Positions 1-18,720 of a stretch of DNA of 64,000 nt are shown piece after piece. How positions within the stretch are numbered: position 1 is the stretch's first letter; every line of letters starts with the position of its first letter. The translations under genes and the position numbers were made by a program. Origin of the DNA: Candidatus Bathyarchaeota archaeon (GTDB lineage: Archaea > Thermoproteota > Bathyarchaeia > Hecatellales > Hecatellaceae); NCBI GenBank assembly GCA_052246995.1, contig JBQPWD010000005.1:32001-96000 (forward strand). Reading direction: 5' to 3'. The notes beneath the pieces are model-generated. The model saw only the letters and a program-made list of their open reading frames with translations. It made no database searches and was not told where the DNA came from.

Positions 1-350
1 AAAGGCAGTTCAGACAGTTCAAGCCTATACCTGGTAAACTTTTCCCCTGATTCACTTGGAATCTCCAAGTTTGTAATTTTTCCTGCAACCGTAAAGCTGC
101 TTGTTTCCAGGATAACGGTTTTTTGGCTTTGATATAGGTTTAAAAGTTTCTGTATGTTCTCATTTACATTTTGACTTATCAAGCCTTCAATTGTGTAAAG
201 CGTTTCAGCCGTGCCTAAAGGCTGTAAAACTGTATGTCTAAAGGGTATTTGATGTCTAGCGTAGGTTTTAACTGGTTTTCTGGTTATTCTGGTTACGTTG
301 CCTATGTTTAAAAGGTCTATTACGTTTTCATCTAGGCCTATTTTAACCAT
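1..350 (-). CDS. Tail tube initiator/distal tail (Dit/GpU-like) protein, truncated by window edge; not in ORF track
   Basis: ATG at 350 overlapping upstream stop; open frame MVKIGLDENVIDLFNIGNVTRITRKPVKTYARHQIPFRHTVLQPLG...YRLELSELP to base 1; IP..LQ.LG pattern typical of GpU/Dit-like proteins. Confidence 0.6.
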   Translation of the reverse strand, partial: MVKIGLDENVIDLLNIGNVTRITRKPVKTYARHQIPFRHTVLQPLGTAETLYTIEGLISQNVNENIQKLLNLYQSQKTVILETSSFTVAGKITNLEIPSESGEKFTRYRLELSELP

Positions 351-2149: not shown

Positions 2150-2152
2150 TTA

Positions 2153-3466: not shown

Positions 3467-3529
3467 GGAAAAACACTTTTCAAAATTTTTTTATAAAAAA
3501 CTAAGAGTAAAAACGCAGAAAATTGTAAA

Positions 3530-3742
3530 TTAAACTATTAACCCTAATTCTCGCCTTTTTAACCTAATTTGGTCTGAAAGGTGTAAGCTTAAAGCCTCTT
3601 TTTCCTCTTCAAAAGTTTCGCTTAGAAGTTTTAAATCCCAAGTTAAAAATTCAATAGGCCTATCCAGGAAAAAGCTTGGTGGAAGATTATAGTTTTTAGC
3701 TAGAATTTTAAATGTCTTTTTCAGGTTTAACAGGATTTCCAA
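3530..3742 (-). CDS. Tail assembly chaperone GT C-terminal extension, probably reached by +1 frameshift
   Basis: Overlaps upstream chaperone in +1 frame; LAKNYNLPPS resembles gpT-type motif; lies just before TMP. Confidence 0.7.
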   Translation of the reverse strand: MEILLNLKKTFKILAKNYNLPPSFFLDRPIEFLTWDLKLLSETFEEEKEALSLHLSDQIRLKRRELGLIV

Positions 3743-4079
3743 AGGCTGGTTGCCGAAAAAAGCTTAACTTTTCAACTATAGCCTGGAAAATTACCGCTCT
3801 ATCCTCCTCAAAAATCTCGTCAAACCCTATTTCACTTGGAATTTTAGGTTCTAAAACATATTCCTGGAAAAGTTCTTTCATCAATTCTCTAACCCTTTTA
3901 GCCAGCTCTAAAGTTTCAAGTTCATAAGGCTTTTCCAAACCATGTTTCCTTGAAAGCTCCAAAAAGGGGATTGAATCAGTTAAAACCCTAACCTTCACGG
4001 TTAAACCGTTAGGTGTATTCACAATTTTAACAGTTTTACGTCTATAATCCTCCAGAAAAACTTTCTTGGCTTTAACCAT
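3708..4079 (-). CDS. Tail assembly chaperone (gpG-like)
   Basis: Position between tail tube and TMP; in-frame TTT-TTT-CGG at 3761-3753. Confidence 0.7.
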   Translation of the reverse strand: MVKAKKVFLEDYRRKTVKIVNTPNGLTVKVRVLTDSIPFLELSRKHGLEKPYELETLELAKRVRELMKELFQEYVLEPKIPSEIGFDEIFEEDRAVIFQAIVEKLSFFRQPAFGNPVKPEKDI

Positions 4080-4124
4080 AAAAACACCACCTTTTTCAGC
4101 CTAGGTTTTTAGGATTTTTACTGT

Positions 4125-4602
4125 TTATTTTTGGTCAAGTTGATGTTGTTTACGGTATGCTGGTTTTCTTCCCTTAGCTTTGCAGTATTCTTCGTATGCT
4201 TGTCTGCTTAAGCTGTCAGCTTCCTTGTTTTGTTCTCTTGGAATCCATACAAAGAAAATGTTGGAAAAATGTTGAGTAAGCTTAACTGCCTCAACATAGT
4301 ATGGGTAGTATAAGCCTTCATATGCCTTCCACAACCTGTTCATCTGGTTGACAAGAAGTTGACTGTCTGAGAATATGACAACTTTTTCATTATGCCAACC
4401 ATGTTTAACCAGCTTTTTTAACGCCTTAACTAAGGCTGAATATTCTGCAACATTGTTACTCATTTCAGCACCCTCGCCTACAACACCCTTACCAGTAAAC
4501 AGTTTAACGTTATGCTTGTAAACAACAAAACCCCAACATGCAACTCCTCCAGGATTGACTGGTTCACTAGCAAAGCCCATCAATGTAGACTATGATGGGC
4601 AT
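4125..4602 (-). pseudogene. rnhA: Archaeal-type RNase HI disrupted by a 4-nt insertion
   Basis: SD GGAGGTG then ATG 4602: MPIIVYIDGLC-TAG; other frame continues EPVNPGG...SNNVAEY...SDSQL...WIPREQNKEADSLS. Confidence 0.85.
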
Positions 4603-4658
4603 TGTTTCACCACCTCCATTTTTCTGGTAAGGAAAAACTGTAAAGGGGAAAATGGTTG

Positions 4659-5390
4659 TTAAAACCATTTTTCAATCTTTCCTTGGCTTTTTTCCGTTAA
4701 AAATGGGGATAGTTCTTTTTTTATGAAGTAGTTTACTCCATGTTTATCCATAAACTCAACCAGTTTTGGCAACTCAGTTTTATAGTATTCTGGATGTAGC
4801 GGCCTGAGTTTGTAGTTGTGTGAACCTACAATCCACCAGTCAACTGTATCCATCAGTTTTTCAACTATGATTATAGGGTTGGTGTAGTCTTTAAGCCAAG
4901 GTTCAAGGGATATAAAGGTTTTAATACCTAAGTTTTTAGCCTTTTTTAAAGCTTGAATTCTCAATTCAGGCGGAGGGGCGTAGGGTTCATAAGGGTTTTT
5001 TGTCAAGCTTACAATTGTAAACCCAACCTGGACGTTTTTATACTGCAATATTAAGTCGTAGTCTTTTTCAACAAGGTTTGACTTTGTTAAAATTAAAATT
5101 TCATGTTTAGACTGTAAAAGCCTTTCAAGCCAAAACCTTGTTTGCCTTAAAATCCAGTCTACAGCCTGGTAGGCATCACCTATATCTTCAAAAAAAACTT
5201 TACCTTTAGGTTGTTTAACAAGCCCCCTAAACCTTTCCTCATTATTTTTTAACAGTTTAGGGTTTTTCCAGTCATCAGTCCACCTTACCTGCCTATTCAT
5301 GTCTTTAGCGTAACAGTAAAGGCAGTCATGAATACATCCAGCAAAAAAGTTGAAAACATAGTTACACCAGTCTACACCTGAAAGCCTCAA
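4659..5390 (-). CDS. Radical SAM protein, SPL-like/DUF5131 (Gp37/Gp68)-related
   Basis: GCIHDCLYCYA CxxxCxxC motif, DAYQ, ILILTKS, EP.AP.P..R, SLEP. Confidence 0.85.
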   Translation of the reverse strand: MRLSGVDWCNYVFNFFAGCIHDCLYCYAKDMNRQVRWTDDWKNPKLLKNNEERFRGLVKQPKGKVFFEDIGDAYQAVDWILRQTRFWLERLLQSKHEILILTKSNLVEKDYDLILQYKNVQVGFTIVSLTKNPYEPYAPPPELRIQALKKAKNLGIKTFISLEPWLKDYTNPIIIVEKLMDTVDWWIVGSHNYKLRPLHPEYYKTELPKLVEFMDKHGVNYFIKKELSPFLTEKSQGKIEKWF

Positions 5391-5433
5391 AAACCATCAA
5401 AAAACTTGGCAAACAATTAAAATTTAAACTTTG

Positions 5434-6336
5434 CTAGTAGCTTGAAATGTTATTCTTCAGCTTTAAGGCAACCTCGTATTGGCTGGTTGAATCGTAGAGG
5501 ACAAGCATGGGTGCAGTTATCCTTAAAGGTTCATTACGGTCTATATGGGGTGCTGCGTCGCTCCTGATAACCATTTTTGGCAGGTGAATTTCAAACTCAT
5601 AGGTGCCTTTAGTGAATTTTAAGCTTAGTGAAACCTCGTTTCCAGCTAAGAATTTATCATATTCGCTTGTATCTGGAAAAGCCATTTCCAACTCAGCCTC
5701 AACAGTCCTACCACGTACAACCATGGTTGTAGGTGTATTATCGCTAAAACCGTATAGTTCATCTTCAGGAATGTTGTTGTTTATTGTCAGCCTTAAGGCT
5801 TTGAGATACTTGGACCTGTCTATACCAGCCAGGGTTAAAACTCCTTCCTTGAAAACGAATGGTGCTAATGTTGAAATTGTAGGTGTATAGTTTGAAGTGT
5901 CCTTTTCCTCTTTTTTGGCTATGATGTCTATGCCTCCCGTGACAATGTCTAAGGCTGTTTCAATTGTAAGCCTGTTTATCAGGCAGCCTGTTATTCTTCT
6001 CTGGACTGTTTCGCTTTTAACAATCATGCTGAAGCTTTTAATCGTGTCTGCACCTTTAAAGGTGTGTTGATATGGTCCTGTACCTGTGGTTGTAACCGAA
6101 CCTAAAGCCCACTTAAAAAATTGGCCGACATTTTCAGGTTCAACTGTAAAATCTATGCTTCCAGTAACCCTGCTCCTTCCTTCAACATACTTTCTAATAT
6201 CCCTGGAATAGACTGTTTCAACTGGTATATAGCCCTTGTCAAAGCTAACCCTTTCCCGTAGAATGTCTACGTATCTGCTTGGGGATACAAATGTTCCATA
6301 GCTTGTTTCCTCAGCTACACCTATCCATCTAGACAT
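5434..6336 (-). CDS. Major tail tube protein
   Basis: IGVAEETSYGT N-terminus, Y.HTF, GC.IN.LTI, LTINNN motifs of siphovirus tail tube family. Confidence 0.85.
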   Translation of the reverse strand: MSRWIGVAEETSYGTFVSPSRYVDILRERVSFDKGYIPVETVYSRDIRKYVEGRSRVTGSIDFTVEPENVGQFFKWALGSVTTTGTGPYQHTFKGADTIKSFSMIVKSETVQRRITGCLINRLTIETALDIVTGGIDIIAKKEEKDTSNYTPTISTLAPFVFKEGVLTLAGIDRSKYLKALRLTINNNIPEDELYGFSDNTPTTMVVRGRTVEAELEMAFPDTSEYDKFLAGNEVSLSLKFTKGTYEFEIHLPKMVIRSDAAPHIDRNEPLRITAPMLVLYDSTSQYEVALKLKNNISSY

Positions 6337-6339
6337 TTT

Positions 6340-6594
6340 TTACTTTACCACCTCCTCCAAGTTTTGGTTTTCAAGTTCACGTTTAAGCTGTGTAAGTTTC
6401 ACTTCCGCCCTTCTCATGGCAACCTGTTTTTTAATGTTTTTTACAATATCCTCTTTTTCCACGTCAACAGGAAAAGCTAGGCTGGATTTTTCAACATTTC
6501 CACCTGCCAAGTCATAGCTAAAGTTTACAACTATTTGCATGTTTTCCATGTCAAAATCTACACTTTCAACTTTAATCATTTTTCTTTTTTCCAC
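6340..6594 (-). CDS. Viral hypothetical protein
   Basis: ORF with AGGAG SD, packed between terminator and tail tube genes. Confidence 0.6.
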   Translation of the reverse strand: MEKRKMIKVESVDFDMENMQIVVNFSYDLAGGNVEKSSLAFPVDVEKEDIVKNIKKQVAMRRAEVKLTQLKRELENQNLEEVVK

Positions 6595-6600
6595 CTCCTT

Positions 6601-7011
6601 CTAAACTGTTTTTAAAGCTGTAACTGTAACTAAAGCTCCCACAATAATTCCACCCTTCTCCAACCCTCCCGCTTCACTTGATATTTCGCTTACATAGGCA
6701 TAATCAACAAGACCGTCAAGGCTGAGGTTTTCAGTTAAAACCTGGTCAACCCTTTCAACCATACTTAGAACATTTATTTCAGCCTCATCTTCACGCATTT
6801 TCGCATCCACAACAAGAATTTCGAAAAACATTTCATATCTTTCCTTAAGTGTTGTTTCACTTGTAACCCTACACCCTCTAAACTTTACACCAATATAAGG
6901 GAAAACTTGAGGTTCAACTGGAAAACCAAAATACCATTTCCTAACCTTAGCTGCAAGTTCTTCATCATTTTTCAATAAATCTAAAATTTTGTTTATGATT
7001 TCCTCAAACAT
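6601..7011 (-). CDS. Tail terminator (gpU/gp17-like)
   Basis: 136 aa, FPYIGV, L..N.SLDGLV motif; upstream of tail tube. Confidence 0.7.
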   Translation of the reverse strand: MFEEIINKILDLLKNDEELAAKVRKWYFGFPVEPQVFPYIGVKFRGCRVTSETTLKERYEMFFEILVVDAKMREDEAEINVLSMVERVDQVLTENLSLDGLVDYAYVSEISSEAGGLEKGGIIVGALVTVTALKTV

Positions 7012-7096
7012 TTAAAAAAACACTTTAAGGTTAAGCTTAAACTTAAAACCAACCTAAAAAAATAAAAAAGTAAAAACTGGAAAAATGTTAAAACAT

Positions 7097-7225
7097 CTAT
7101 CCCTTTAATGCGTCCCAGCAACTTTTGCAGTAGAATCTAACGTAGTCTTCCATCTCAACCTTAATAAAATCTTTTTTATTGTTAATCACTTTTTGGCAGT
7201 TGTAACAGTAAACTTCGCTGGACAT
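7097..7225 (-). CDS. 42-aa CxxC...CxxC Zn-finger microprotein, paralog of 7374-7580; not in ORF track
   Basis: MSSEVYCYNCQKVINNKKDFIKVEMEDYVRFYCKSCWDALKG*, preceded by GGGGGTTAATGG. Confidence 0.75.
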   Translation of the reverse strand: MSSEVYCYNCQKVINNKKDFIKVEMEDYVRFYCKSCWDALKG

Positions 7226-7279
7226 TTACCATTAACCCCCTTTTATCCCTTAAATTTTCCTTCAAAAAGTAATTAAAGC

Positions 7280-7384
7280 TTACCTTCCAAATGTTCTGTT
7301 TTTAAGCTTAAACAGCCAATTTTCACAAGCTGGAAAGTTTACACATTCCTCATTTTTACAGTAAAAAGTTAACCTATCTGACAA
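7280..7384 (-). CDS. Possible 34-aa Cys-containing microprotein
   Basis: TTG start overlapping upstream gene end; MSDRLTFYCKNEECVNFPACENWLFKLKNRTFGR*. Confidence 0.35.
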   Translation of the reverse strand: MSDRLTFYCKNEECVNFPACENWLFKLKNRTFGR

Positions 7385-7580
7385 CGGTTCTTAACTCTTC
7401 AGTTTTTATGGTTTCACTATACCGAGTTTTAGGTGTTCGAGCATGTAACCGTCTACTTTTTAACATACTCCAACAACTTTTACAGTAAAACTTGATCCTA
7501 CCGTCTACCCTAACCTTAACAACGTCTTCCCTATTGCCAACTACCTTTTGACATTCGTAGCAGTATACTTCGCTGAACAT
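7374..7580 (-). CDS. Zn-finger microprotein
   Basis: CYEC...CKSC; SD GGAGGTTGATGG. Confidence 0.75.
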   Translation of the reverse strand: MFSEVYCYECQKVVGNREDVVKVRVDGRIKFYCKSCWSMLKSRRLHARTPKTRYSETIKTEELRTVVR

Positions 7581-7640
7581 TTAACCATCAACCTCCAAGT
7601 TTTTTAACCATTTTAACAGTTCAACTCTGACATTGTAGTT

Positions 7641-7666
7641 TTTAACTCTAATATATTAGAGTTAAA
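7641..7666. promoter_or_regulatory. Perfect 26-bp palindrome, candidate operator
   Basis: TTTAACTCTAATATATTAGAGTTAAA equals its own reverse complement; ~60 bp upstream of the Zn-finger genes. Confidence 0.55.
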
Positions 7667-7789
7667 GCAGGCTTTTAAATTTTCAATAAAATTTATAAAA
7701 AACAACAAATAAATATTAACCCCTTTAAAATGCTTGTTTTTAAGCCTAAACCAGTCTGAAGGTATCAAAATTACGCTTAAAGGTGTAAA

Positions 7790-7996
7790 TCAACCTTGCT
7801 TTTCCAACATTAAATCTAGAATTTTTTTGAAAACGACATCGCTTAACCTTTCAGGTAGACTTTTAACTTTTATACTGTAGTTTTGATATTTTATTTCAGG
7901 TTCTTCTATTTGTATTTTCAACAGGAAAAGGTTGTAAAGCTTTACAGCCTCAAAAATCTTGTTTAAAATCTCCTCTTCTGCCATTTTTTTATTCAC
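7790..7996 (-). CDS. Viral hypothetical protein
   Basis: ORF in operon with GGAG SD. Confidence 0.55.
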   Translation of the reverse strand: MNKKMAEEEILNKIFEAVKLYNLFLLKIQIEEPEIKYQNYSIKVKSLPERLSDVVFKKILDLMLEKQG

Positions 7997-7999
7997 CTC

Positions 8000-8218
8000 C
8001 TACAAGAGAGTTAAAAAAATGCTTGTAAATGTTAAACCAAGCGAATACTCTAAAATGTCTCCAATAAAAAACTCAAATTTTTCTTTTGGACGTTTCAGAA
8101 TAAACTCGATAAACTCGTAAAAAATGAATAAAACAAAAATTAAAGGAAAAATCAGGGTTAAAACTCCAAGCACTGTATGGATAAGACTCCAAACATCGTC
8201 AAAAACTTCAACCTTCAA
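8000..8218 (-). CDS. Small viral membrane protein
   Basis: D.WSL.H...G and YE..E....DILEY..G pattern, hydrophobic helices. Confidence 0.65.
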   Translation of the reverse strand: MKVEVFDDVWSLIHTVLGVLTLIFPLIFVLFIFYEFIEFILKRPKEKFEFFIGDILEYSLGLTFTSIFLTLL

Positions 8219-8421
8219 CTTTTCTCGCCATAGGTATATGTATAATACCTGGTTTCCAGGGTTTGTAAAGCCATAAAAATATTATACTCTAATGCTTTTA
8301 AAATCCATACAATCTCCATCACCGTTAAATTTTCCAGTAGCTTTTCAATTTCCTTTAAAACTTGGTTTAGCTTTTTTAAGTCAACTTTAACCTCTATTTT
8401 AGGCTTATTTTGGTTTTCCAT
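8215..8421 (-). CDS. Viral hypothetical protein
   Basis: Translationally coupled ORF. Confidence 0.55.
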   Translation of the reverse strand: MENQNKPKIEVKVDLKKLNQVLKEIEKLLENLTVMEIVWILKALEYNIFMALQTLETRYYTYTYGEKS

Positions 8422-8424
8422 TTT

Positions 8425-8835
8425 TCACCCCTTTATAACCAGTTGTTTTAAAACTTCAACCAGTCTTTGTCTAGCCTCACCTAGGCTTTTTGCAACCCAT
8501 TTTTGGCCTTTAAAACCTGGATGTTCAACTTTTCTTGTGAAAACAGTTTTTTTGCCAACCTTGAAAACTAAAACCTTAGCCTTTTTAGGTAGAATTGTAT
8601 AAGGTTTAACCCCATATTCCGTATATTTCCAATGGGGAGTCATTAGAATGTTTAAGCCTCTTACGGTTATGCTTCTCCTAAGCCTACCAGTCTTAACTGT
8701 AACATTACGTCTTAAAGTTTCAGCAATAACTTCACCTAGTTTTATACTTTTAGGGATGTTTTCAATGTTAAGTCTAAGCCTTCCAAGCAGTTTTAAAACT
8801 TCATCGGTTTTAACAACTATCTCCAGTTTTTTCAA
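8425..8835 (-). CDS. HK97 gp10-like neck/tail-completion protein
   Basis: VKTGRLRRSI...EYGVKPYTI.PK..K.L.F...V.HPG motif. Confidence 0.85.
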   Translation of the reverse strand: MKKLEIVVKTDEVLKLLGRLRLNIENIPKSIKLGEVIAETLRRNVTVKTGRLRRSITVRGLNILMTPHWKYTEYGVKPYTILPKKAKVLVFKVGKKTVFTRKVEHPGFKGQKWVAKSLGEARQRLVEVLKQLVIKG

Positions 8836-9458
8836 ACCATCACTATGGAAACATGTTTTTCAAAAAATTGCTCTAACTCTTTAACCCTGGTTTTCAACTC
8901 TTCATACAACTTGGACATATAGCCTTGTGAAAGGTCAACCCTGTAATTTTCGTTAAAGCTGCGGACAATTAAAACTTCCAAGGCCACCCGTTTAGTTGCA
9001 TACTCTTCCAAAATTTTTTGTTCAAAATTAAAACCATAGGTGTATGTTACCCTGATTCTAGCCCTACCTCTTGGAGGAATATTATCATAGAAATATAAAC
9101 CTATGCCTAAAAGCTTTCCAGCAAAGTTTTTCTTGACAACTATAAAACTTGAACCTTCCCCTGGCCCCTCAACCAGTTCCTGCCAATCTGGTTTTTGACT
9201 TGGATCTGCAAAGTTAACTTCTACCCTAGAAACCTGGATTATGGGTAGAAAGTTAGGCTGGATAAAAGCCTCACCATCACTACCTACAAGCTCGTTTTCA
9301 GAGGTGTATACGCCTAAAAGCCTGGTATCCATGTCTTTATCTACACGTTCAATAATGTCTAAAAGCTGCCCACTTGTAGGTACGCTATCCTCGCCAATAT
9401 CAATTTGAAGTAAAGCCTCAATTTTCATTTCATTCGTGTATTTAGGCTGGTAACTCAT
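8832..9458 (-). CDS. Head-tail adaptor (gp6/gp15-like)
   Basis: Downstream of MCP; YT...I.ALL, PII.V..V, IRVTYTYG motifs. Confidence 0.75.
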   Translation of the reverse strand: MSYQPKYTNEMKIEALLQIDIGEDSVPTSGQLLDIIERVDKDMDTRLLGVYTSENELVGSDGEAFIQPNFLPIIQVSRVEVNFADPSQKPDWQELVEGPGEGSSFIVVKKNFAGKLLGIGLYFYDNIPPRGRARIRVTYTYGFNFEQKILEEYATKRVALEVLIVRSFNENYRVDLSQGYMSKLYEELKTRVKELEQFFEKHVSIVMV

Positions 9459-9535
9459 AAAACAACGCTTTCAAAAATTGTTTTTAAAAAAAAGTTTTGA
9501 AAAAGAATTTTAAAATTCTAAAAATTTGTTGGTTT

Positions 9536-9796
9536 TTATTGTGGTGTGCAAACAGCAAAAACATATAGTTGTGTGCCGTTTGTTGCTGTAACTTTAATTG
9601 TTACAGTTTTCCCGCTTATTGAAGCCAAAGGTACACTTGAACCTCCTCCGTCTGTTGTTCCCACAATTTGAACCCATGCACGTTCAACAGGATGGTCAAA
9701 GGTTGCTGTGGCTTGGTTGCTGGATACTGATACAGTTTTCCAGTCTAAAATTTTACCCCGTAGGCTTCCAGGATGGTCTGTAGGTGTAATAGGCAT
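9536..9796 (-). CDS. Putative head decoration/minor capsid protein
   Basis: 86-aa Thr/Ser-rich beta protein immediately after MCP. Confidence 0.5.
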   Translation of the reverse strand: MPITPTDHPGSLRGKILDWKTVSVSSNQATATFDHPVERAWVQIVGTTDGGGSSVPLASISGKTVTIKVTATNGTQLYVFAVCTPQ

Positions 9797-9818
9797 TGGT
9801 CAACCACCTCTATCTAGT

Positions 9819-10859
9819 TTATGTTGCAGATTCAGGGGTTTGTATTACAATGTTTGCAGCTGGATCTACAACGGCTACTCCAAAACTGTAGCTTGCGGTT
9901 ATTCTAACTTTCAACTCTTTAACAAGCCTTTGAGTTTCAAAAAGCATTTCCCGTTTAGGTGCGAAAACTACAGCCCTTCTGTTAATCATAACAGCTGACT
10001 TTTTGCTGTTTGATGTGTGGCTTGGTAGTAGGTCTTTAGGTAGTACAAGTATTTTAACACCCATAAACTCTTGAACTAAGCCATCTCTTACAATGTCAGG
10101 CCTGGCAAACACAAGTGCTTGTGAACTTGCTACATCTTTATACAATGCTAAATACTGGTTGGGAGTTAAAACAAGAACGTAGTCCTGGGGCCTAATGTCG
10201 TTGCCTGTTGTATTCATGGCTTCAGCAATCCAGTCAACGTCAAAATTGACGCTTTCACTACCCTTTGAAAGGCTTGATACACCTGAAGCACTGTTGACGG
10301 CTGAAACTATTGCAGCATCTACAGCCCTGATAATACCTACTCTGAAAGCGTTTTCAATTTCAGCAAGTAAATCTTCGCTTAGCTTTTCAACATCTGAATA
10401 GGGTATATCTGAATAGGCTCCCCGTGTGTCAAGTGTTGTTGTTGCAACCCCGTAAAGGTTTCCAGTTTGAATTGCCTGCAGTTCTCCAGTTGAAAGGGTT
10501 AAACCTGTAACATCTTTAACGTATGGTATGCTTACAACATCACCCATCTGGCCTTGCATAGCCCTTGAAACTGTAACATAGTTTATCAAGCTTGCAACTG
10601 GGGCTTGTGGTATACTTAAAGGAGCCTCCCATTGTTCTCGTATGCTTCCAGCCCTCAAAGATTCAACAATTTTAGCCAGTCTTGACTTTTCCTGATTTTC
10701 AATTATACCTTTACCTTTAGGTTCGTCATGTTTAACCAGTTTCTCCCTTATTTCAGCTATCTCTTTGGTTAACTGGTCAAGCCTAGCCTGTAAAGGTGAA
10801 AAGTCTATAACTATTTCCTCCTCCCTCTTCTCCTGACTCATATTTTTCACGTATAACAT
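9819..10859 (-). CDS. Major capsid protein (HK97 fold) with N-terminal coiled-coil scaffold/delta-like segment
   Basis: Position after protease; G.VVSIP, VLTPNQY..L, G.V..FMGV.I, FGVAVVDP. Confidence 0.85.
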   Translation of the reverse strand: MLYVKNMSQEKREEEIVIDFSPLQARLDQLTKEIAEIREKLVKHDEPKGKGIIENQEKSRLAKIVESLRAGSIREQWEAPLSIPQAPVASLINYVTVSRAMQGQMGDVVSIPYVKDVTGLTLSTGELQAIQTGNLYGVATTTLDTRGAYSDIPYSDVEKLSEDLLAEIENAFRVGIIRAVDAAIVSAVNSASGVSSLSKGSESVNFDVDWIAEAMNTTGNDIRPQDYVLVLTPNQYLALYKDVASSQALVFARPDIVRDGLVQEFMGVKILVLPKDLLPSHTSNSKKSAVMINRRAVVFAPKREMLFETQRLVKELKVRITASYSFGVAVVDPAANIVIQTPESAT

Positions 10860-11015
10860 GGCTTACCCTTCCACTTTCACCTTAAACCCTACCCTGGAAA
10901 GGCTAACATGGTGAGGGGTGAAGGGCAGCCCTATTTAACCCTCAACACAGCCTAACCAACATTAAAAAATTCCAGGTTTGTTTGTTGGCTAGGTCTGTCA
11001 TCATCGGGTTAGCTT
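10860..11015 (-). ncRNA. Predicted structured RNA (K-turn hairpin plus second multistem hairpin with complementary loops) in protease-MCP intergenic region
   Basis: UAACCC-GAUGAUGA...UUGA-GGGUUA closing an 11-bp stem; loops CCUGGAA and UUCCAGG are complementary; G-U pairs favour the minus strand. Confidence 0.65.
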
Positions 11016-11027
11016 TAAAAATTAAAG

Positions 11028-12044
11028 TTAGGTTTTAATTCGGATTTTTCTTGTTTTTGGTAAAAGGCTTTCCAAGATTGTGTTAACCTTTACGCTTAAC
11101 CTTTCAACCTCGTCAACCAGCTTCTCCATCCTCTCATTTAAATCCTCAAGCTTAAAGACAATAGTAGCTGATTCAAATGTGGGAGGTTCACGTTCAAACT
11201 CTCTGTAATGCTGAGCTAAATGATTATACACGCCTTTTCTATCTTCGTCTGGAATGTCTACTCCTCCCCTTGCCCCGAAAAGTGCAGCCATAGCCGCAGC
11301 CACACCTCTCCAAACCACGCTAAACCTTCCACCGACAAACTTGTGGTGAGGTAGTTTATATCCTGCTTTGACATCAGCTTTTTCAGGATCGTACCATACA
11401 TGGGCTTCACGATATAATTCCCACCCTCCCTTGTCCAGGATAAAATTTCCATCGTCAGCGGTGAAACTCCATTCTGTGTCTTCTGGTGCTTTATCATAGT
11501 TTCTTGTATGTTTTACAACTTTTTCTTTAACCTGGTTTTCCAGTTTTTTATCCACCTCCTTACCAGTTTTATAAGTGTTAACTTTTTCAAACAGTTTCTC
11601 CAAAACCTGGATGTTTGTTTCTGGAACACCTGGTACGGCTACAAGGCTAAGCTCTTTAAACCCAAGGCCTCTTGGAATTCTCCCGTTAACTGGTTCTATG
11701 AGTTCATAGTTGGCTGCAATTGAAACATGCTGGATAAGACCAGTCTTAATCTTGTTTGCTACCTCATCATCGTAAATTTCAGCCTCATACATGATAGCCT
11801 TCTCCTTGTCATCCCACCAGGCGTTTACAACTTTCCCTACCGCCTTGTCCGCTGAAACATGCTCTATGTAAACTGGTTGCCCTACCAGGCTTTGAACAGC
11901 CTTTTTCAACTCTTCTTCGATGTATACGTTATAGTTTCTTGAAACTCCAGCCTTTACAGCTATTCCCCTAATCCTAAGAACTGGTTGGATTTGGGTTTTC
12001 TCTAAGGTTTCAAGCCAAACAAAACTATCCATTTTCAACTTCAC
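11028..12044 (-). CDS. Prohead maturation protease with C-terminal accessory domain
   Basis: I.G.A...G.SRN...Y..EEL, EH, HVSI, ELSLVAVPG; C-terminal YKLPHH...VWRGVAAAM..L.GARGGVDIP. Confidence 0.88.
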   Translation of the reverse strand: MKLKMDSFVWLETLEKTQIQPVLRIRGIAVKAGVSRNYNVYIEEELKKAVQSLVGQPVYIEHVSADKAVGKVVNAWWDDKEKAIMYEAEIYDDEVANKIKTGLIQHVSIAANYELIEPVNGRIPRGLGFKELSLVAVPGVPETNIQVLEKLFEKVNTYKTGKEVDKKLENQVKEKVVKHTRNYDKAPEDTEWSFTADDGNFILDKGGWELYREAHVWYDPEKADVKAGYKLPHHKFVGGRFSVVWRGVAAAMAALFGARGGVDIPDEDRKGVYNHLAQHYREFEREPPTFESATIVFKLEDLNERMEKLVDEVERLSVKVNTILESLLPKTRKIRIKT

Positions 12045-13476
12045 CCTCCAAACATTTTAAAAACTCGTAAACTAGGGGAAAGTTTTCCCTATACCAAGCC
12101 TTAGCCAAGTCTAACGTCCAGTTGTATACGCTTTTGTCAAATATGATTTGTATAACCCTTCTTCCTAACCCTGTAATCCATGCTGTTTGCATAGATACAC
12201 CTTTATCCGAGTCTAAAGGCTGGTAACGTATGGTTGAAGTGTCAACCTGGTCTGGATCCTGTAGTTGAAGTATAACCTGGTTTGTCAAGTTATACCATCT
12301 TGGCGTCCAAACCTGGAATTGTTCTTCTAAACCTTCCTTGGGAATTTCTGGTTCGGGGACAGGTATACCCATCATCTGCAACATCTTTATGACTTGTAAA
12401 CGGCTAAGAATTCCAACATCCGCTTTAGCCAAGTTTACCAGGTCGGAAATTTTCAAATCTTCTATGCCGCTTCTAGGATAACCCCAATTCAGTTTTACGT
12501 GGACATCATTTAAATCACAAGCCTTCAGAAGAGGTTTCCAGATTTCACCCTCCACTTTCCTTTTAATATAACGTTGTAAAGCCTTCACGTCACGGTCTAC
12601 ACATTCAAGCATAACTTTAGCCGAGGCTTCAGTTGCATTGCGTAGATAGGACAGTAGTGGACCTCTCATCCCCTCAAAAATTTTTCTTTCCACAGCCTCC
12701 AGGAGTTCGCCAAACCTTACACGGCTATCAACCTGGATTACGTTTGTTTCTATTTCTCCTGTAGCCAGAATTGGATCTCCAGGTTTCCTTTTCTTTAAAA
12801 CTTCCATGAAATAGTCAACATCAGCCTTATTCTTAAATGTGAAAACAGGGATTGGGTAGGCTGTTTTATAGACAACTTCAACCATGTTTTCCATGTTTTT
12901 TATGTCAAAATCAAGGAAACGGGCGACAGGTTCAACTATTCCAACCCCATACCCCGACATTTCTACATCATTCCATTTAAAATGAACTATCTCCTCAGGA
13001 TTAAACTCAACTCTAGCTCCTGTAGCCTCCTCCACGTAGCCTTGAATCTCGCCAAACCTATCCCTAACAATTTTCATTTTGGCTGTTGGTAGTCTTTTAA
13101 CCCTGGTAAGCCTACCATTCTCATTAAAAATTTTCTCCAGAAAACTGTTTCCAGTTATAAGCATATCTTTCACTATTTCCAGTAAAAGCTCATCCATGTT
13201 GACTTTAGCGTTAAACTCGTCAACAATTTCTTTAGCCCTGGTTTGCCTGGAATCCTCACCATTATCTACAGTAGTGTAAAACCCTGGTCCTGCAACCATC
13301 CCCGCCAAACTATCCACACTTGATTTTACCAAGGGATGGGTTTTATAATAGCCATAAAGCTGACTGTAGCTTACAGGTTGAGGTTTTCCCCATGTAGACC
13401 AAAACTCAAAATAAGGTTCTACAACACCTTTCTGTTCACGTATAAACAGTTTCCTAAGTCTTTCAAAAACACCCAA
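12025..13476 (-). CDS. Portal protein with C-terminal extension
   Basis: DML.TGNSFLEK, F.PEEIVHFK.....YG.GI.E motifs; follows TerL. Confidence 0.9.
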   Translation of the reverse strand: MGVFERLRKLFIREQKGVVEPYFEFWSTWGKPQPVSYSQLYGYYKTHPLVKSSVDSLAGMVAGPGFYTTVDNGEDSRQTRAKEIVDEFNAKVNMDELLLEIVKDMLITGNSFLEKIFNENGRLTRVKRLPTAKMKIVRDRFGEIQGYVEEATGARVEFNPEEIVHFKWNDVEMSGYGVGIVEPVARFLDFDIKNMENMVEVVYKTAYPIPVFTFKNKADVDYFMEVLKKRKPGDPILATGEIETNVIQVDSRVRFGELLEAVERKIFEGMRGPLLSYLRNATEASAKVMLECVDRDVKALQRYIKRKVEGEIWKPLLKACDLNDVHVKLNWGYPRSGIEDLKISDLVNLAKADVGILSRLQVIKMLQMMGIPVPEPEIPKEGLEEQFQVWTPRWYNLTNQVILQLQDPDQVDTSTIRYQPLDSDKGVSMQTAWITGLGRRVIQIIFDKSVYNWTLDLAKAWYRENFPLVYEFLKCLEGEVENG

Positions 13477-13616
13477 AAAAACACCTCTAAATTAAAATAG
13501 AAAACAGGAAAAAGCTGGTTTTGAAAAGTTAAACTTAAAAAAAGTTTAAGCTTGTAGCTTTATAGGTGAAAAAAAGTTTTTTGTTTTAAGGTTTCAGCTG
13601 GGAGGGTTGTGTTGGC

Positions 13617-13688
13617 TTATTTTGCACACTTACTTTTCTCTTCTTTTTTCTTCTCTTCTTTTTTCTTCACTTCTTTTTTCTTAGCCAT
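13617..13688 (-). CDS. 23-aa Lys/Glu-rich micropeptide; not in ORF track
   Basis: AGGAG SD, ATG 13688: MAKKKEVKKKEEKKKEEKSKCAK*; 15-nt tandem units; upstream AAAAACTTTTAAATA BRE/TATA-like. Confidence 0.55.
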   Translation of the reverse strand: MAKKKEVKKKEEKKKEEKSKCAK

Positions 13689-13742
13689 GGTCTCCTTCAT
13701 TTAAAAATATAGAGATAGTTATTTAAAAGTTTTTACTACTTT

Positions 13743-15038
13743 TCACCATTTCCATTGTTCAGCAGTTGTAACTTCAAGCTTTTCTTCCCTAGTTGCATAA
13801 ATGGCTAAGGCTAGACTCCATACACGGTCGTCATGGCTACCCTCAGGATGGTAAAACTTTATACTTCCATCTTTGGCTAATTCAAATTTTTCATTGTTCA
13901 ATTCGGCTAGAAGTTCAGCATCATAAGGAATTTTCAGGTTTTTATTTTGCATTTGTTGTTTTAAAAACCCTAAAATTTCCTGTTTACGGGGCATGGTTAA
14001 AATTACCCCCTGGACACCTGGAATCCCGCTGTTTCTCATATCTTCCAAGATGTACTCTCCAACACCTGTCTGGTCGATTAAAACCTGGTAAACAGTTTTA
14101 TAACGGTCTGTAAGAGTTTTAACATAACCTATAACACTAGCATAAGGAGTTTCCAAGGGAAACCTGTACATGTGAACCAGTTTAAACCCATCCTCCTGCC
14201 TATCTACCACGCTTACAACTGAATAGTCAACCTTTTTACCCAGGTCAACACCTATGTAAAAGTTTCCTTGAACATGGTCTTCAAAGTCATAATATTCCAG
14301 TTCTGCGTCTATACATTGGGTTATCAAACTTCTAGGCAAATAGCTATCACTATCCTCTGTAAACCTGGCTTCAAACTCCCTTTCAAAACGTTCCAAGGGG
14401 AGAACCCTTCGCATCTCCTCAATAAATTCTTTCTTTATCAGGCCTGCTTTAACCACATCCCTCCAGGTTACAACATGCTTGGAAAAACCTGGATCCTGAA
14501 ACATTTTGTAAAAAACGCTATCTATGGACCAGGGTGTACTGGAAACTATTAAGTAGCCGTCGGTTGTTGAAAGCATAGGGTAAAGCACATTGTAAAACAC
14601 TACTTCATCCTCACGGAAAAATGCAGCCTCATCAGCTATAACCATGTGGGCAGTATAACCTCTTAAAAGGTTTGGACTGTTAGGCAAGGCAACAATTTGC
14701 GAGTCGTTTTTAAACCTTACAACTGTCCGCTGCATTTTAGCTATCATATGTTTTTGAAGCTGTCTGGGTATTCGATGTAGGAAGACTTGCAGCCTATCCA
14801 TCATAATCATGCTTTGCCTTAGGCTGGGTGAAACGATTAGGGTTAAAGTTTTAGGATGGGTTACCACAAACCATATCGCCTTGACGGCTAGTGTAGATGT
14901 TTTCCCCGCCTGCCTCGACATTATGACACATATACGTTTACTTTTATCGTTTAAAAGCTTCTCCTGGTAAAATGTCGGCTTAAAACCAAGAAGCTTCTCA
15001 GCAAAAAGCGAGGGGTTTTGACGTAAAACCTCAACCAT
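13743..15038 (-). CDS. terL: Terminase large subunit
   Basis: SRQAGKT Walker A, IADEAAF Walker B, SSTP, GVDLG nuclease, HDDRV.SLAL. Confidence 0.95.
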   Translation of the reverse strand: MVEVLRQNPSLFAEKLLGFKPTFYQEKLLNDKSKRICVIMSRQAGKTSTLAVKAIWFVVTHPKTLTLIVSPSLRQSMIMMDRLQVFLHRIPRQLQKHMIAKMQRTVVRFKNDSQIVALPNSPNLLRGYTAHMVIADEAAFFREDEVVFYNVLYPMLSTTDGYLIVSSTPWSIDSVFYKMFQDPGFSKHVVTWRDVVKAGLIKKEFIEEMRRVLPLERFEREFEARFTEDSDSYLPRSLITQCIDAELEYYDFEDHVQGNFYIGVDLGKKVDYSVVSVVDRQEDGFKLVHMYRFPLETPYASVIGYVKTLTDRYKTVYQVLIDQTGVGEYILEDMRNSGIPGVQGVILTMPRKQEILGFLKQQMQNKNLKIPYDAELLAELNNEKFELAKDGSIKFYHPEGSHDDRVWSLALAIYATREEKLEVTTAEQWKW

Positions 15039-15045
15039 ACGGTTT

Positions 15046-15393
15046 TTAACCCTTTCTACCTATCTCAGCCAGTTCTTCTTTTGCTCTAGTATATTTGTTG
15101 CAAGATTTGTAGAGACCAAAGCAGATTAGAATGTCGGGGTAGGAGATTGGTTGAGGACGTTTTTCGGCTTCACATCTACCGTTTATAAAAAAGAGACAGC
15201 CATCCTGTTCTTTTAACGTTGAAAAATGTTGTATACAAAAGCTTGAAAGTAGGGTTGCAGCCTGCTCGTTATAGTCTAGTTTTAGCTTTTTACAAACATT
15301 TTTGAAAACAATTGTAATATAGTTTGGAATGGAAAAACTACAATTAACCTTCTTTTTTAAATCTTCAACCCTTTTTCTACCCATAAAAACCAC
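15046..15393 (-). CDS. Putative ribbon-helix-helix DNA-binding protein with Cys-rich C-terminus
   Basis: KKVNCSFSIPNYI...FK.VCKK....N.....LL RHH-like pattern; four C-terminal Cys; likely start ATG 15384. Confidence 0.5.
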   Translation of the reverse strand: MVFMGRKRVEDLKKKVNCSFSIPNYITIVFKNVCKKLKLDYNEQAATLLSSFCIQHFSTLKEQDGCLFFINGRCEAEKRPQPISYPDILICFGLYKSCNKYTRAKEELAEIGRKG

Positions 15394-15421
15394 TTGCTTT
15401 TTAACTTGGTCAGCTTAGATG

Positions 15422-15739
15422 GCTAAAGTAGTATTTTTGTAAGAATTTTGGTGAAAAACCGGAAATTTTTGTATACAAAAATATTTTTAGATTTTTTTAT
15501 TATATACAACCTCTAATTGAATTTTTTTATTTATCTTATTCTATTCTCTAAGGTTAACCAATTCTACACTTTATTCTCCATTTTTTTAATTTTTAGTTTA
15601 TTTTTGGTTTAAAACCTAGAATTTTCACCTTCTTTAAGTTGTCCAAGTTTTCTTTTTTTGTTTTAAGCTTCGAAAATATTTTTGTATACAAAAATATTGA
15701 GTTTTTGAGTGATATTCTTACAAAAAATGTTACTTTAGC
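15422..15739. repeat. Large imperfect inverted repeat (66-bp arms) around ~185-bp AT-rich core
   Basis: Arms 15422-15487 and 15673-15739: GCTAAAGTA..ATTTTTGTAAGAAT, an 18-nt spacer, then identical ATTTTTGTATACAAAAATATTTT. Confidence 0.9.
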
Positions 15740-15776
15740 GATTTTTCTGGTGGTTTTGACGTAGCTTTTTCAACCA

Positions 15777-16187
15777 TCACATTCCCATAAGCTCTTTTAC
15801 CATGTTGTCAACCATGTCAACAACTTTTTGCTGCTGTTTTAGGCTTAGCCTTTCCTTTCTTGTTAAAGCTAAACCTTCAATCCAGTCTAAAATTATTCTG
15901 CAAAGTTTTTCATAACTTCCAACATAGCTGGAAAGTTTACCATGTTTAAGCTCCTTAACTGGTTTGTTTAACTCGTCAAAAATCAGTTTACGTAGTTTTT
16001 GAAGTAAAACCAGGTTTTTAGCTGTTTCATCAACCATTAAAACGTCTACTTCAGCTTCAACACCAAGATTTTTCAATGTTTCCATGATTTTACTTTTAAC
16101 TTTTTCAACATCCTCGTCAGCTATTTTCCTCCAACCAGGGGGGAGAATGTTTACAATTTTACATCTAACCTGTTTTTCCAGTTTCAC
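15777..16187 (-). CDS. Probable terminase small subunit (P27-like)
   Basis: C-terminal EGLALTRKERLSL resembles the LGLTP..R..L motif; upstream of terL. Confidence 0.55.
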   Translation of the reverse strand: MKLEKQVRCKIVNILPPGWRKIADEDVEKVKSKIMETLKNLGVEAEVDVLMVDETAKNLVLLQKLRKLIFDELNKPVKELKHGKLSSYVGSYEKLCRIILDWIEGLALTRKERLSLKQQQKVVDMVDNMVKELMGM

Positions 16188-16503
16188 CTTTTAAACCCTC
16201 CAAAAGTTTGCCAATAAAATCCATGGTTGGAACTTTAGCTGGTATTAGGCATAATATTCCCCTGGACGTTTCAACATAGGCAAAATTTACATCTTCAAAA
16301 AACCTGTGAAACTCTTTGGGAATGTAAATTCTCATGCGTTTTTTATCCTTGTTGATTTTTAAAAATTTACCCAATGCCCTATTTACCCTTTTACCCTCAT
16401 ACCCTCCAGACTTTTGAATTTTAAATTGTTTTCCAGTATTTTGGATTTTTAGTTTCCACCAGTTTTTTAACTTCGCTTGCCAGGTTGAGGCTGCAAGTTT
16501 CAC
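16165..16503 (-). CDS. AbrB/SpoVT-like small DNA-binding protein (true start probably ~16374)
   Basis: KRMRIYIPKEF...ILCLIP pattern. Confidence 0.5.
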   Translation of the reverse strand: MKLAASTWQAKLKNWWKLKIQNTGKQFKIQKSGGYEGKRVNRALGKFLKINKDKKRMRIYIPKEFHRFFEDVNFAYVETSRGILCLIPAKVPTMDFIGKLLEGLKGETGKTG

Positions 16504-16630
16504 ATAAAATCATTGTTGGCCTTTCTCTTTTAGTGAAAATTGAGAAAATCAAACATTCAGTATTGTAAAATGTTTTTTCACAGCTTCCACATCTAAACGC
16601 TTTAAAGGTTTCTTTAGCGATTTTAAGCAT
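16421..16630 (-). CDS. Zn-finger viral protein
   Basis: CGSC...LCETC. Confidence 0.6.
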   Translation of the reverse strand: MLKIAKETFKAFRCGSCEKTFYNTECLIFSIFTKRERPTMILCETCSLNLASEVKKLVETKNPKYWKTI

Positions 16631-16642
16631 TTAAATCCCTCT

Positions 16643-16873
16643 TCACGTCTTACTCCTGGTAACCATGCCTGTTAAATGTCCTATAAGGGCCATGGTTAGG
16701 CTGAGGATGGTTGGTTCAAACTCTCCATGCTGTATATAATACAGTATATTTAATATTAGGAGAGCTGTTAGGCAAACCAAGTTTGTTATAAAAATACCCT
16801 CAGCTTTTGAAGACTCCTCCCTACTTGTTTTTCTAAACTCTAAAAGCTTATCCAGGCCTAACATGGTAAACAT
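16643..16873 (-). CDS. Small two-TM membrane protein (holin-like topology)
   Basis: Two hydrophobic helices, basic C-terminus. Confidence 0.5.
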   Translation of the reverse strand: MFTMLGLDKLLEFRKTSREESSKAEGIFITNLVCLTALLILNILYYIQHGEFEPTILSLTMALIGHLTGMVTRSKT

Positions 16874-17228
16874 CCCTAGCCTTAAGCAGAAAACCCTCTA
16901 AAGGCAGCTCGGAAACTAGGCTTTTAAACGTGAAATCTTTTTCATAACTCATTTTTTCAAAGTTGTTTTCAACAACCTTCACCTTTTTAATACTTTTAAT
17001 ACAGCCTAAAGGTATGGCAACTTTGAAGTGCTCCGCCAAACCCCTTTCACTTGTTATAATCAATTTGCCTTTAACAACGTCAACAACAAAACCAACATCA
17101 ACAATCTCGGCGAAAGGATCCTCCTTAAAGGCTTTAGCATCCTCCCAGATAATCATGACGAAGTCTCCTTTCCTCAGTCTTCTAACTTTTTTCAAAATTT
17201 CCTCAAAATCTTCAAGCTTTTCAGCCAT
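16848..17228 (-). CDS. Conserved viral small beta-barrel protein
   Basis: V.I.WEDA...VGFV...IPLGCI.SI motif seen in many phage hypotheticals. Confidence 0.6.
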   Translation of the reverse strand: MAEKLEDFEEILKKVRRLRKGDFVMIIWEDAKAFKEDPFAEIVDVGFVVDVVKGKLIITSERGLAEHFKVAIPLGCIKSIKKVKVVENNFEKMSYEKDFTFKSLVSELPLEGFLLKARDVYHVRPG

Positions 17229-17231
17229 GAA

Positions 17232-18035
17232 TTAACCCTCCAAGGCTTTTTTACCTTTTTCCCCAGCTTTTTCCATGGTTTTCAAGCCAACATAACGTTT
17301 AAAATCCACGTTACCAACAACTTTAGGCAAAAAAAGGTAGCAACTGTAGGCTGAAGTACATCGAGCGTTAATTTTGAAATAGATTGGGTAGGATTGTAGC
17401 CCATGATGCATAGCTAAAATATTCATAAAGTTTTCCTGAATTTTCTGGCAATATTCACCTAAATGCTGAATGCTTTTAAACTTACCATGTTTAACAGGAA
17501 AACTTTGTAAATAGTGTTTTTCCAGGTTTGTGTTGCTTAAACGTCTAAAGTTTAAGATAAAACCATCAGTCAGGAAACATATAAGAAAGCTTTTAGGACT
17601 GTAAACCTGGAAAAACTTTTTCACTTGGGCAGTTGGAGAACCGAAAGCGTCAAAGTCAACATGGGTTATGGGTTCGTCAAGGCTGAGGTTTTTCTCCAAA
17701 AACTCCATGTTATCCATGTTGTAAAACTCTGTAGGACATTTATTTTTAAACTCAGCCAGGTTTTCCTTTAAAACTTGGAAAAAACGTTTATCCTTTTCAA
17801 CACAGATAAGCTTTTCACAACCATGCTTCGCATACAAATACGCCAAAAAACCTTTACCTGAAAAAAGGTCTAAAACAGTTTTTCTTGGAAACATCAGGTA
17901 AACCTGCATACGTAAATTTATCTTATCCTGGTCAGCTTGTTCAAGCTTATAGCCGTCTTTACCAACATAGCTTGGACCTTGAAAAAGCTTTCTAGGCAAT
18001 TTCCAACGTGAACTGTATAAGCCTTTTCCAGTCAA
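17232..18035 (-). CDS. Class I SAM-dependent methyltransferase, Trm1/TcmP-like
   Basis: VLDLFSGKG motif I, ICVEKD motif II, VDFDAFGSP, LTDG. Confidence 0.75.
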   Translation of the reverse strand: MTGKGLYSSRWKLPRKLFQGPSYVGKDGYKLEQADQDKINLRMQVYLMFPRKTVLDLFSGKGFLAYLYAKHGCEKLICVEKDKRFFQVLKENLAEFKNKCPTEFYNMDNMEFLEKNLSLDEPITHVDFDAFGSPTAQVKKFFQVYSPKSFLICFLTDGFILNFRRLSNTNLEKHYLQSFPVKHGKFKSIQHLGEYCQKIQENFMNILAMHHGLQSYPIYFKINARCTSAYSCYLFLPKVVGNVDFKRYVGLKTMEKAGEKGKKALEG

Positions 18036-18037
18036 AA

Positions 18038-18247
18038 CTAATCAACCAAACATGGATGAATATACCTTGGAAAAGCAAACAAAACATCTCCACATTCAAC
18101 ATTCAAAACATGATAGTCTTTTAAGGCTACAAGCTCTCCCCTTTCACGATCATAGAAGGCTTCACGAAAAACCCTTCTCCTCTCCAGCCTAACCAGTCTA
18201 CACATCTCCCTCATTTTTTCAGCTTTTTTAGAACGTTTATGAGGCAT
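18038..18247 (-). CDS. Basic viral hypothetical protein (start refined to MPHKRSKK)
   Basis: GTGGTTTTT-ATG initiation context shared with other provirus genes. Confidence 0.45.
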   Translation of the reverse strand: MPHKRSKKAEKMREMCRLVRLERRRVFREAFYDRERGELVALKDYHVLNVECGDVLFAFPRYIHPCLVD

Positions 18248-18360
18248 AAAAACCACTAACCAAGCCACACAACCCAGCATTAAAAACAAGAAAAAGCTGG
18301 GAGGCAGCTGACACCTAAAAAACAAAACAAAAAGGAAATATTTAAACACCATTACGTTTA

Positions 18361-18427: not shown

Positions 18428-18512
18428 GCGGGGGTCGCCAAGCCTGGTTAAAGGCGCGAGGTTCAGGACCTCGTCCCGTAGGGGTTCGTGGGTTCAAATC
18501 CCACCCCCCGCA
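18428..18512 (+). tRNA. tRNA-Leu(CAG), intronless, CCA not encoded
   Basis: GCGGGGG/CCCCCGC acceptor, CGAGG-TT-CAG-GA-CCTCG anticodon arm, long variable arm, GGTTCAAATCC T arm. Confidence 0.97.
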
Positions 18513-18720
18513 CTGGATACATCAATCCCACTTCCCCGCCGAGTCTTTTTGCGCACATGGTTCAATAAATGACGAGCATCAATCAAGAGGTCTTCTTTTA
18601 GGACTTGAAGAAAGCCCCGCGAGGAAAATATGTAACATCAGCCTTAACGCTATACCAAACAATGGTAATAATGGCGGGCTTAACAGGGAAAACCTAAAAA
18701 ACCAAAAACTAATTGAAGAG

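Follow-up and report, generated by a model that had tools for sequence, protein, structure and literature searches.

The window, i.e., the whole stretch of 64,000 nucleotides of archaeal DNA that was analysed, carries the genes of a provirus from about position 1 to 18352, all of them on the minus strand; the host genome is 1.53 Mb in size and, judging by the names attached to homologues, that of a Bathyarchaeia-like archaeon. The head module of the provirus reads, in minus-strand order, large terminase (13743-15038), portal (12025-13476), a 338-amino-acid open reading frame (ORF) with a coiled-coil tail (11028-12044), a spacer and the gene for an HK97-type major capsid protein (MCP; 9819-10841). 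A tRNA-Leu(CAG) gene on the plus strand (18428-18513) lies just past the last minus-strand provirus gene (18038-18352) and is a likely integration site.

The 338-amino-acid ORF matches no Pfam family above that family's cut-off. In tblastn searches it matches genes annotated as prohead/head-maturation protease in Halogranum tailed virus 1 (E 2e-8) and in Thermus phage Riverbug, as well as a Nitrososphaera provirus gene in which protease and MCP are fused. The label "protease" is reasonable because these genes are so annotated. The ORF is also 68-71% identical to the upstream ORFs of six related loci (L014, L015, L002, L089, L003 and L090). The gene that follows the spacer is recognized by Pfam (PF19821, E 1.8e-8) and by PHROG (major head protein), and so the order of protease and then capsid, on which the preliminary description relied, is confirmed.

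The longest capsid ORF opens at 10859, and a hairpin had been said to end immediately before its first ATG. As judged from the sequences, the true start is almost certainly the AUG at 10841, which gives a protein of 340 amino acids beginning at M7. M7-S8 hardly vary in 24 homologues, the gene call supplied with the source is 340 amino acids long, and a near-identical strain (run X1) has a one-nucleotide insertion after 10842, which would put a start at 10859 out of frame. A weak, probable Shine-Dalgarno (SD) sequence, GUGA at 10847-10850, lies six nucleotides before this AUG and resembles the AGGUGA-N6-8-start arrangement of the relatives. The leader is therefore 186 nucleotides long (10842-11027), and the hairpin, which is predicted as described, ends 18 nucleotides before the start rather than directly at it.

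The 186-nucleotide RNA (G+C 0.42, folding z-score -3.5) is predicted to form two hairpins, hairpin 1 at 10936-11011 and hairpin 2 at 10860-10931. Both are present in the RNAfold minimum free energy (MFE) structure of 10850-11035, which has an energy of -62.5 kcal/mol (z -3.54), and none of 200 dinucleotide shuffles was as stable. The sense strand folds about 9 kcal/mol better than the antisense strand (-61.8 versus -52.7 kcal/mol) because G.U pairs occur in both hairpins, and the computed folds show the two stable hairpins forming on the sense strand only. Eight gaps between provirus genes were tested, and the leader alone is both G+C-rich and structured; six of the seven others have a G+C of 0.17-0.36 and z-scores between -1.2 and +1.3, and the seventh is the gap at 15394-15776 (z -5.8). 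Read on the minus strand, all of the motifs listed in the preliminary description are found where it had placed them.

The leader begins with an A+U-rich stretch (11012-11027), with a run of five U residues directly after the protease stop codon, which could be a TATA-like box or an archaeal oligo-U terminator. Hairpin 1 follows; it has an asymmetric 8-by-6 internal loop, an 11-base-pair stem with one G.U (10993-10983 with 10961-10951) and a 21-nucleotide loop, which holds a T6-A-A run in the DNA, and its arms total 20 base pairs. In hairpin 2, the inner stem is formed by an SD-like GGUGA and an anti-SD-like UCACC (10877-10881 and 10917-10921), 35 nucleotides upstream of the real start. The probable SD sequence itself is unpaired in the MFE fold.

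No second copy of the spacer was found in the host genome. Rfam has no match to it, either at E values up to 10 over 9500-12500 or at the gathering score across the window. One RNA-seq library, from a sediment metagenome of a different study (run X5), contains two contigs identical to a part of the capsid gene. All four sequencing runs were available as contigs and the coverage by the X5 RNA library is limited to 10500-10762; these contigs do not prove that the capsid gene is transcribed.

The most distinctive part of the leader is the base of hairpin 1. The consensus for kink-turns (K-turns) of the box C/D type consists of RUGAUGA and CUGA, which gives a U.U at position 3b:3n and a G-C pair at 4b:4n. 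In hairpin 1 a box C, GAUGAUGA at 11005-10998, which is an exact RUGAUGA, faces UUGA at 10945-10942 on the minus strand. Below them is a C helix of six pairs (UAACCC at 11011-11006 with GGGUUA at 10941-10936; CG, CG, CG, AU, AU and UA), so that -1b:-1n is C:G, as is usual in K-turns. Above it come a GAU bulge (11005-11003), tandem G.A and A.G pairs (11002-11001 with 10943-10942), a U.U at 3b:3n, a G.U at 4b:4n, which results from UUGA in the D-like box, CAG with CUG, and then the 11-base-pair stem. At the level of sequence, the base of hairpin 1 shows the signature of a box C/D-type K-turn, with UUGA in the place of the consensus CUGA.

The host genome encodes L7Ae (PF01248, 110.7 bits), the protein that would bind such a motif. 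No obvious GAU-bulge K-turn was seen, by eye, upstream of the host l7ae gene. The context of box C in the window is identical to that in C/D-sRNA-like loci of the host. Three host loci in assembly G000 (C2:207561-207625, C7:68082-68161 and C4:79650-79717) have a terminal stem and (G)AUGAUGA or CGAUGA and CUGA boxes 50-80 nucleotides apart; they are probable C/D box sRNAs and would show the host's own K-turn context. The first of them matches the box C of the window.

The rarity of the motif needs to be kept in proportion. GAU-bulge K-turn patterns with a C helix of at least four pairs and a non-canonical (NC) helix of at least three occur 93 times in the 1.53-Mb genome, as compared with 47-53 times in three shuffles of it, and part of this excess consists of loci that resemble C/D sRNAs. 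These counts imply a prior of about 0.003 for finding one in this 186-nucleotide gap. Among looser patterns (C helix of at least six pairs, NC helix of at least four) there are 24 on the minus strand of the window alone; such loose patterns are common by chance, and the K-turn is a feature that was chosen after the fact.

The best support for the K-turn comes from the comparison with related viruses and with l7ae leaders. A capsid alignment (A1) led to 96 loci that were fetched, and seven more came from related genomes; L012 was left out, as its upstream region runs into a terminase-like frame. Most of the relatives have a spacer of 105-250 nucleotides before the capsid gene, and GAUGA occurs within 260 nucleotides upstream of that gene in 43 of the 67 distinct related stretches. 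The leaders are of three types, namely a pseudoknotted motif, a reduced form of it and a third group (L014, L015, L002, which is the same as L089, and L020) that has neither of the first two and whose proteases are closest to that of the window (68-71% identity).

It is in this third group that the K-turn recurs. The window and all of the group 3 leaders have, in order, one strand of a C helix, the GAU bulge, the G.A and A.G pairs, an NC helix, GA and the other strand of the C helix. Neither the bulge nor the two GA dinucleotides vary in any of the six leaders of the protease group (four distinct sequences), as counted with a script that scored the K-turn pairs. The pairs at -1 and -2 are CG and CG in the window and in L015, and GC and GC in L014, L002 and L020, which is a double compensatory swap. 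The NC helix of group 3 starts with GC or GU, followed by AU and AU, and is closed by a loop of 10 nucleotides. In L014, L015 and L002 the K-turn is a short stem-loop that ends 8-13 nucleotides before the SD sequence. The comparison comprises four distinct sequences from about three lineages, and in three of them the C helix consists of two base pairs and then a mismatch. The K-turn that had been proposed for hairpin 1 is thus supported in part: in this small sample of four distinct related loci, the bulge, the GA dinucleotides and a complementary C helix are kept with compensatory swaps.

Other parts of the conservation picture are less favourable. The K-turn is absent from the six closest capsid relatives (44-54% identity). 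In these and in 55 other loci GAUGA lies in an eight-nucleotide hairpin loop and cannot form a K-turn; therefore the conservation of GAUGA may have another reason. In contigs of relatives that are about 90% identical to the window, the summed depth is 39-42 over hairpin 2 but only 0.7-2 over hairpin 1, which is not kept in them at 80% likeness.

Searches by similarity and by pattern added little, as no relative is close at the DNA level. Blastn and nhmmer searches of 103 related loci with the spacer gave nothing beyond chance matches of 13-23 nucleotides. Among 401 genomes of the class, short matches occur in 11 besides the host; none of the nine loci examined adjoins a capsid or protease homologue, and those that were read fall in coding sequence. 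Two exact or degenerate patterns had no matches in the viral_contigs set. A pattern made from group 3, allowing up to two mismatches, matched 12 of the 401 genomes, only one of them exactly (G011), as compared with 15 for a reversed control.

The pseudoknotted motif of the other loci deserves a description of its own. According to covariance model R2, 55 of the 98 related loci have this RNA of about 120 nucleotides, which in every case is on the capsid strand and immediately precedes the capsid gene; model R1, in which P3 is one column off, gives the same count. From the 5' end it consists of a conserved UAGUCAC, a hairpin (P0), YGAC, P1 (6 base pairs, with a loop of the form NN-GAUGA-N), P2 and P3, and the P2 loop forms a pseudoknot with the 3' tail; examples, from loci in the range L027-L094, are L036:2322-2446, L035:1717-1838 and L011:2298-2418. 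In a set of 40 distinct sequences, pairing reaches 93.6% in P1 and 100% in both P2 and P3, with 159 cells changed on both sides, a value that none of 500 shuffles reached. The alignment used (A5) omits nine of the 49 distinct sequences, which are the weakest or reduced ones (L061, L068, L053, L072, L021, L009, L024, L010 and L016). The six closest capsid relatives of the window carry the reduced form (E 1e-14 to 0.02).

An Rfam search of eight related loci (E up to 1) gave no match. The pseudoknotted motif is a candidate for a new cis-regulatory or catalytic class of RNA in its own right. It may already be among the five candidate RNAs upstream of a capsid family that are mentioned in PMC10690425. 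The motif is flanked by an anti-SD-like UCAC and by the SD sequence AGGUGA, an arrangement that suggests a switch that would sequester the SD sequence; the words GGUGA and UCACC of hairpin 2 also flank it. A search of 151 genomes of the class with R2 had no matches, although it shows little, as that set had no positive-control genome.

The window is not a member of this family. With filters off, the best R2 matches have E values of 0.74 (on the wrong strand) and 1.6, and the best R1 match has 0.23. The two kinds of leader are alike in their position before homologous capsid genes, in having GAUGA after one strand of a six-base-pair stem and in the presence of UCACC and GGUGA. They are unlike in that the window has no P2, P3 or pseudoknot, and its GAUGA is in the internal loop of a K-turn.

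Known systems provide a precedent for the K-turn. Stem-loops with a GAU-bulge K-turn that binds L7Ae are present in the 5'-UTRs of archaeal l7ae mRNAs, according to Daume et al. 2017 (PMC5539422) and Huang, Ashraf and Lilley 2019 (PMC6298567). The statement in the preliminary description that no equivalent had been described was therefore too strong. In the latter paper, G:A and A:G come after a GAU bulge in all six of the l7ae 5'-UTR K-turns drawn, which lie near the SD sequence and have weak C helices, and every K-turn tested folds upon addition of L7Ae. In l7ae mRNAs the binding of L7Ae has been shown to act on ribosome access.

The leader of the window shares with these elements its nature as a stem-loop of an archaeal mRNA leader and the GAU bulge followed by G:A and A:G. 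Group 3 in addition shares with them the weak C helix and an SD sequence close by, and the l7ae 5'-UTRs and the leaders described here are also alike in that either polarity of -1b:-1n (C:G or G:C) is seen. There are also differences. The l7ae elements act on the regulator's own message, whereas here the message would be that of a viral capsid protein. In addition, the NC helix in the window is about 14 base pairs long with a 21-nucleotide loop, the element lies about 105 nucleotides from the start, and the SD sequence is not occluded in the predicted fold.

Taking these observations together, the 186-nucleotide gap is probably a cis-acting leader of the capsid mRNA rather than a packaging RNA, and its sequence suggests that it is probably bound by L7Ae. 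We propose that an archaeal head-tail provirus uses the gap as a structured 5' leader for its MCP mRNA or, as a variant of the same proposal, as an internal leader of a late polycistronic RNA. Host L7Ae would bind the K-turn and clamp hairpin 1, and the compact leader thus bound would protect the capsid message at high temperature. The leader might also tune the amount of capsid protein relative to the protease encoded upstream, which would tie capsid synthesis to free L7Ae. For the reading as a whole, i.e., a structured leader clamped and protected by host L7Ae and perhaps tuning the ratio of capsid to protease, our estimate of its probability is roughly 0.4.

The preliminary description had suggested a switch that senses L7Ae and sets the ratio of capsid protein to protease. 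If such a switch acted by occluding the ribosome binding site, it would not be evident in the window, as the K-turn is about 105 nucleotides away and the predicted fold leaves both the SD sequence and the AUG unpaired; in relatives it is plausible, and in the short stem-loop of group 3 the binding of L7Ae could act directly on ribosome access. In the window the K-turn would more likely affect how stable the capsid message is or how it is processed, and hence the capsid-to-protease ratio, because its stem has grown longer and another hairpin intervenes before the start. The weakest link of the proposed mechanism is the transcription start. A T-rich box lies 9-14 nucleotides before GAUGA in all four leader types of the protease-related group, and if it were a TATA box it could put box C outside a capsid-specific transcript.

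A more ambitious version would have archaeal head-tail viruses in general couple capsid synthesis to L7Ae through a GAUGA leader, with the K-turn hairpin of the window kissing hairpin 2 in a compact particle clamped by L7Ae; this we consider distinctly unlikely. If correct, it would be the first viral use of an L7Ae/K-turn switch and would tie in with a broader family of capsid-leader RNAs that is as yet undescribed. To our knowledge, there is hardly any information on the means by which archaeal tailed viruses produce capsid protein in large excess over protease and portal when all are made from one operon. A K-turn in the capsid leader would provide a concrete and testable hypothesis, with host L7Ae as a sensor or a clamp. 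The one natural translational switch known for L7Ae, that of a ribosomal-protein gene, would then have a counterpart in a virus. The literature searched contained no description of a K-turn leader in an archaeal virus.

The strongest competitor to the L7Ae-bound leader is a structured leader that has no protein partner, in which, in a thermophile, the hairpins simply lend stability to the 5' region of the capsid mRNA or flag a site where it is processed, and the likeness to a K-turn is incidental. Structured spacers are indeed general in this virus group (mean z -1.5; z below -2 in 18 of 51 distinct spacers, counting spacers of 60-350 nucleotides only), K-turn patterns are frequent by chance as noted above, and what the relatives of about 90% identity have kept is hairpin 2, which lacks a K-turn. 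However, this explanation does not account for the exact RUGAUGA box, nor for the invariant GAU-GA...GA with its compensatory C-helix swaps in the related leaders, and we regard it as rather unlikely, if credible.

The element might instead act as DNA. Hairpin 1 would then be a long imperfect palindrome that flanks a T-rich, TATA-like loop, and would act as an operator at the capsid promoter, bound by a repressor of the virus or of the host. The T6-A-A run in the loop and another A+T-rich box just upstream are consistent with this, as is the variability of hairpin 1 among close relatives, since operators often vary in this way. However, the G.U pairs and the 8-by-6 internal loop make the element strand-specific, with the sense strand favoured as described above, and arms of this total length are unusual for an operator. 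Furthermore, the stems of related motifs covary even where, as in L093 and L094, G+C-rich loops have taken the place of A+U-rich ones, and this speaks for an RNA rather than a DNA element. Therefore, we consider an operator improbable.

The loop of hairpin 1 and the apex of hairpin 2 had been proposed to pair with each other, perhaps in a processed structural RNA like the pRNA of phage phi29. The phi29 pRNA, for which Rfam includes a family, is a separate RNA molecule that contains a three-way junction and whose loops form conserved pairs between molecules. CCUGGAA in the loop of hairpin 1 (10976-10970) is exactly complementary to UUCCAGG in the apex of hairpin 2 (10899-10893), as had been claimed, and the former is almost fully unpaired (unpaired probability 0.92-1.0); the latter, however, is partly paired in the MFE fold (0.42-1.0). 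When the loop of hairpin 1 was shuffled 5000 times, a 7-nucleotide complement arose with P 0.023 against all of hairpin 2 and with P 0.007 against the 26-nucleotide apex. Some 7-nucleotide complement anywhere in the spacer is found in 57% of 500 shuffles, though, and the complementarity is real but weakly significant. None of the relatives compared shares it, and with hairpin 1 missing from those of about 90% identity the pairing has no comparative support.

The leader and the phi29 pRNA are alike in having two loops with complementary sequences and in their origin from a head-tail virus. They differ in that the leader has no sequence or Rfam match to the pRNA, consists of two separate hairpins without a three-way junction, lies inside the mRNA leader of a head-gene operon and has a complement that is not conserved. 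We therefore set aside the pRNA-like alternative of the preliminary description, and any kissing-loop RNA, in which the apical loops would pair within or between molecules and so compact or multimerise a discrete structural RNA, is even less probable than an operator. The mutually exclusive pairing that had also been proposed, between GCUAAC (11013-11008) and GUUAGC (10907-10902), is at chance level, since a 6-nucleotide complement occurs in 95% of the 500 shuffles, and it carries no weight.

A short ORF also needs to be considered. The sequence AUGAUG...UGA (11004-10942 on the minus strand) opens a frame of 20 codons that coincides with the GA motifs of the K-turn, spanning exactly from box C to UGA, and a leader peptide of 20 residues might modulate translation of the capsid gene. 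The AUG of GAUGA opens short frames in the relatives as well. However, there is no SD sequence upstream of it, the lengths of the frames and their peptides vary between relatives, and covariation in P2 of the pseudoknot family removes the stop codon in 16 of the 40 rows. Moreover, the conserved G and A around the AUG are unnecessary for a start codon, and this explanation is very improbable.

Guide sRNAs of the C/D box kind have internal C' and D' boxes and guides of 10-12 nucleotides that match rRNA or tRNA. A virus-encoded RNA of this kind can be dismissed as extremely improbable: hairpin 1 resembles archaeal C/D sRNA K-turns in its exact RUGAUGA box C, terminal C helix, D-like box, three-nucleotide bulge, tandem GA pairs and U.U at 3b:3n, but the D box is UUGA and not CUGA (hence the G.U at 4b:4n), C' and D' boxes are lacking, the would-be guides are locked in a 14-base-pair helix, a search of the genome for targets of their 12-mers and 11-mers gave nothing except the locus itself and one 11-mer, and the position is that of an mRNA leader.

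The arrangement of the two head genes itself varies in this virus group. In several of the related loci (L003/L090, L018, L019, L022/L091, L023/L092 and L095) the protease and the capsid protein are fused in one frame and there is no leader. One of these fused forms belongs to a provirus of the host's own genus (G001), and so split and fused forms coexist in the group. Among isolated viruses, MFTV1 alone matches the protease over nearly its full length, and it has no spacer after its protease gene.

Finally, the gap at 15394-15776, which lies upstream of the terminase region and is A+T-rich (G+C 0.24), contains a 54-nucleotide inverted repeat (83% complementary) together with a 21-nucleotide palindrome that occurs twice, in identical copies 213 nucleotides apart, and it may be a regulatory site, an origin or a packaging site.
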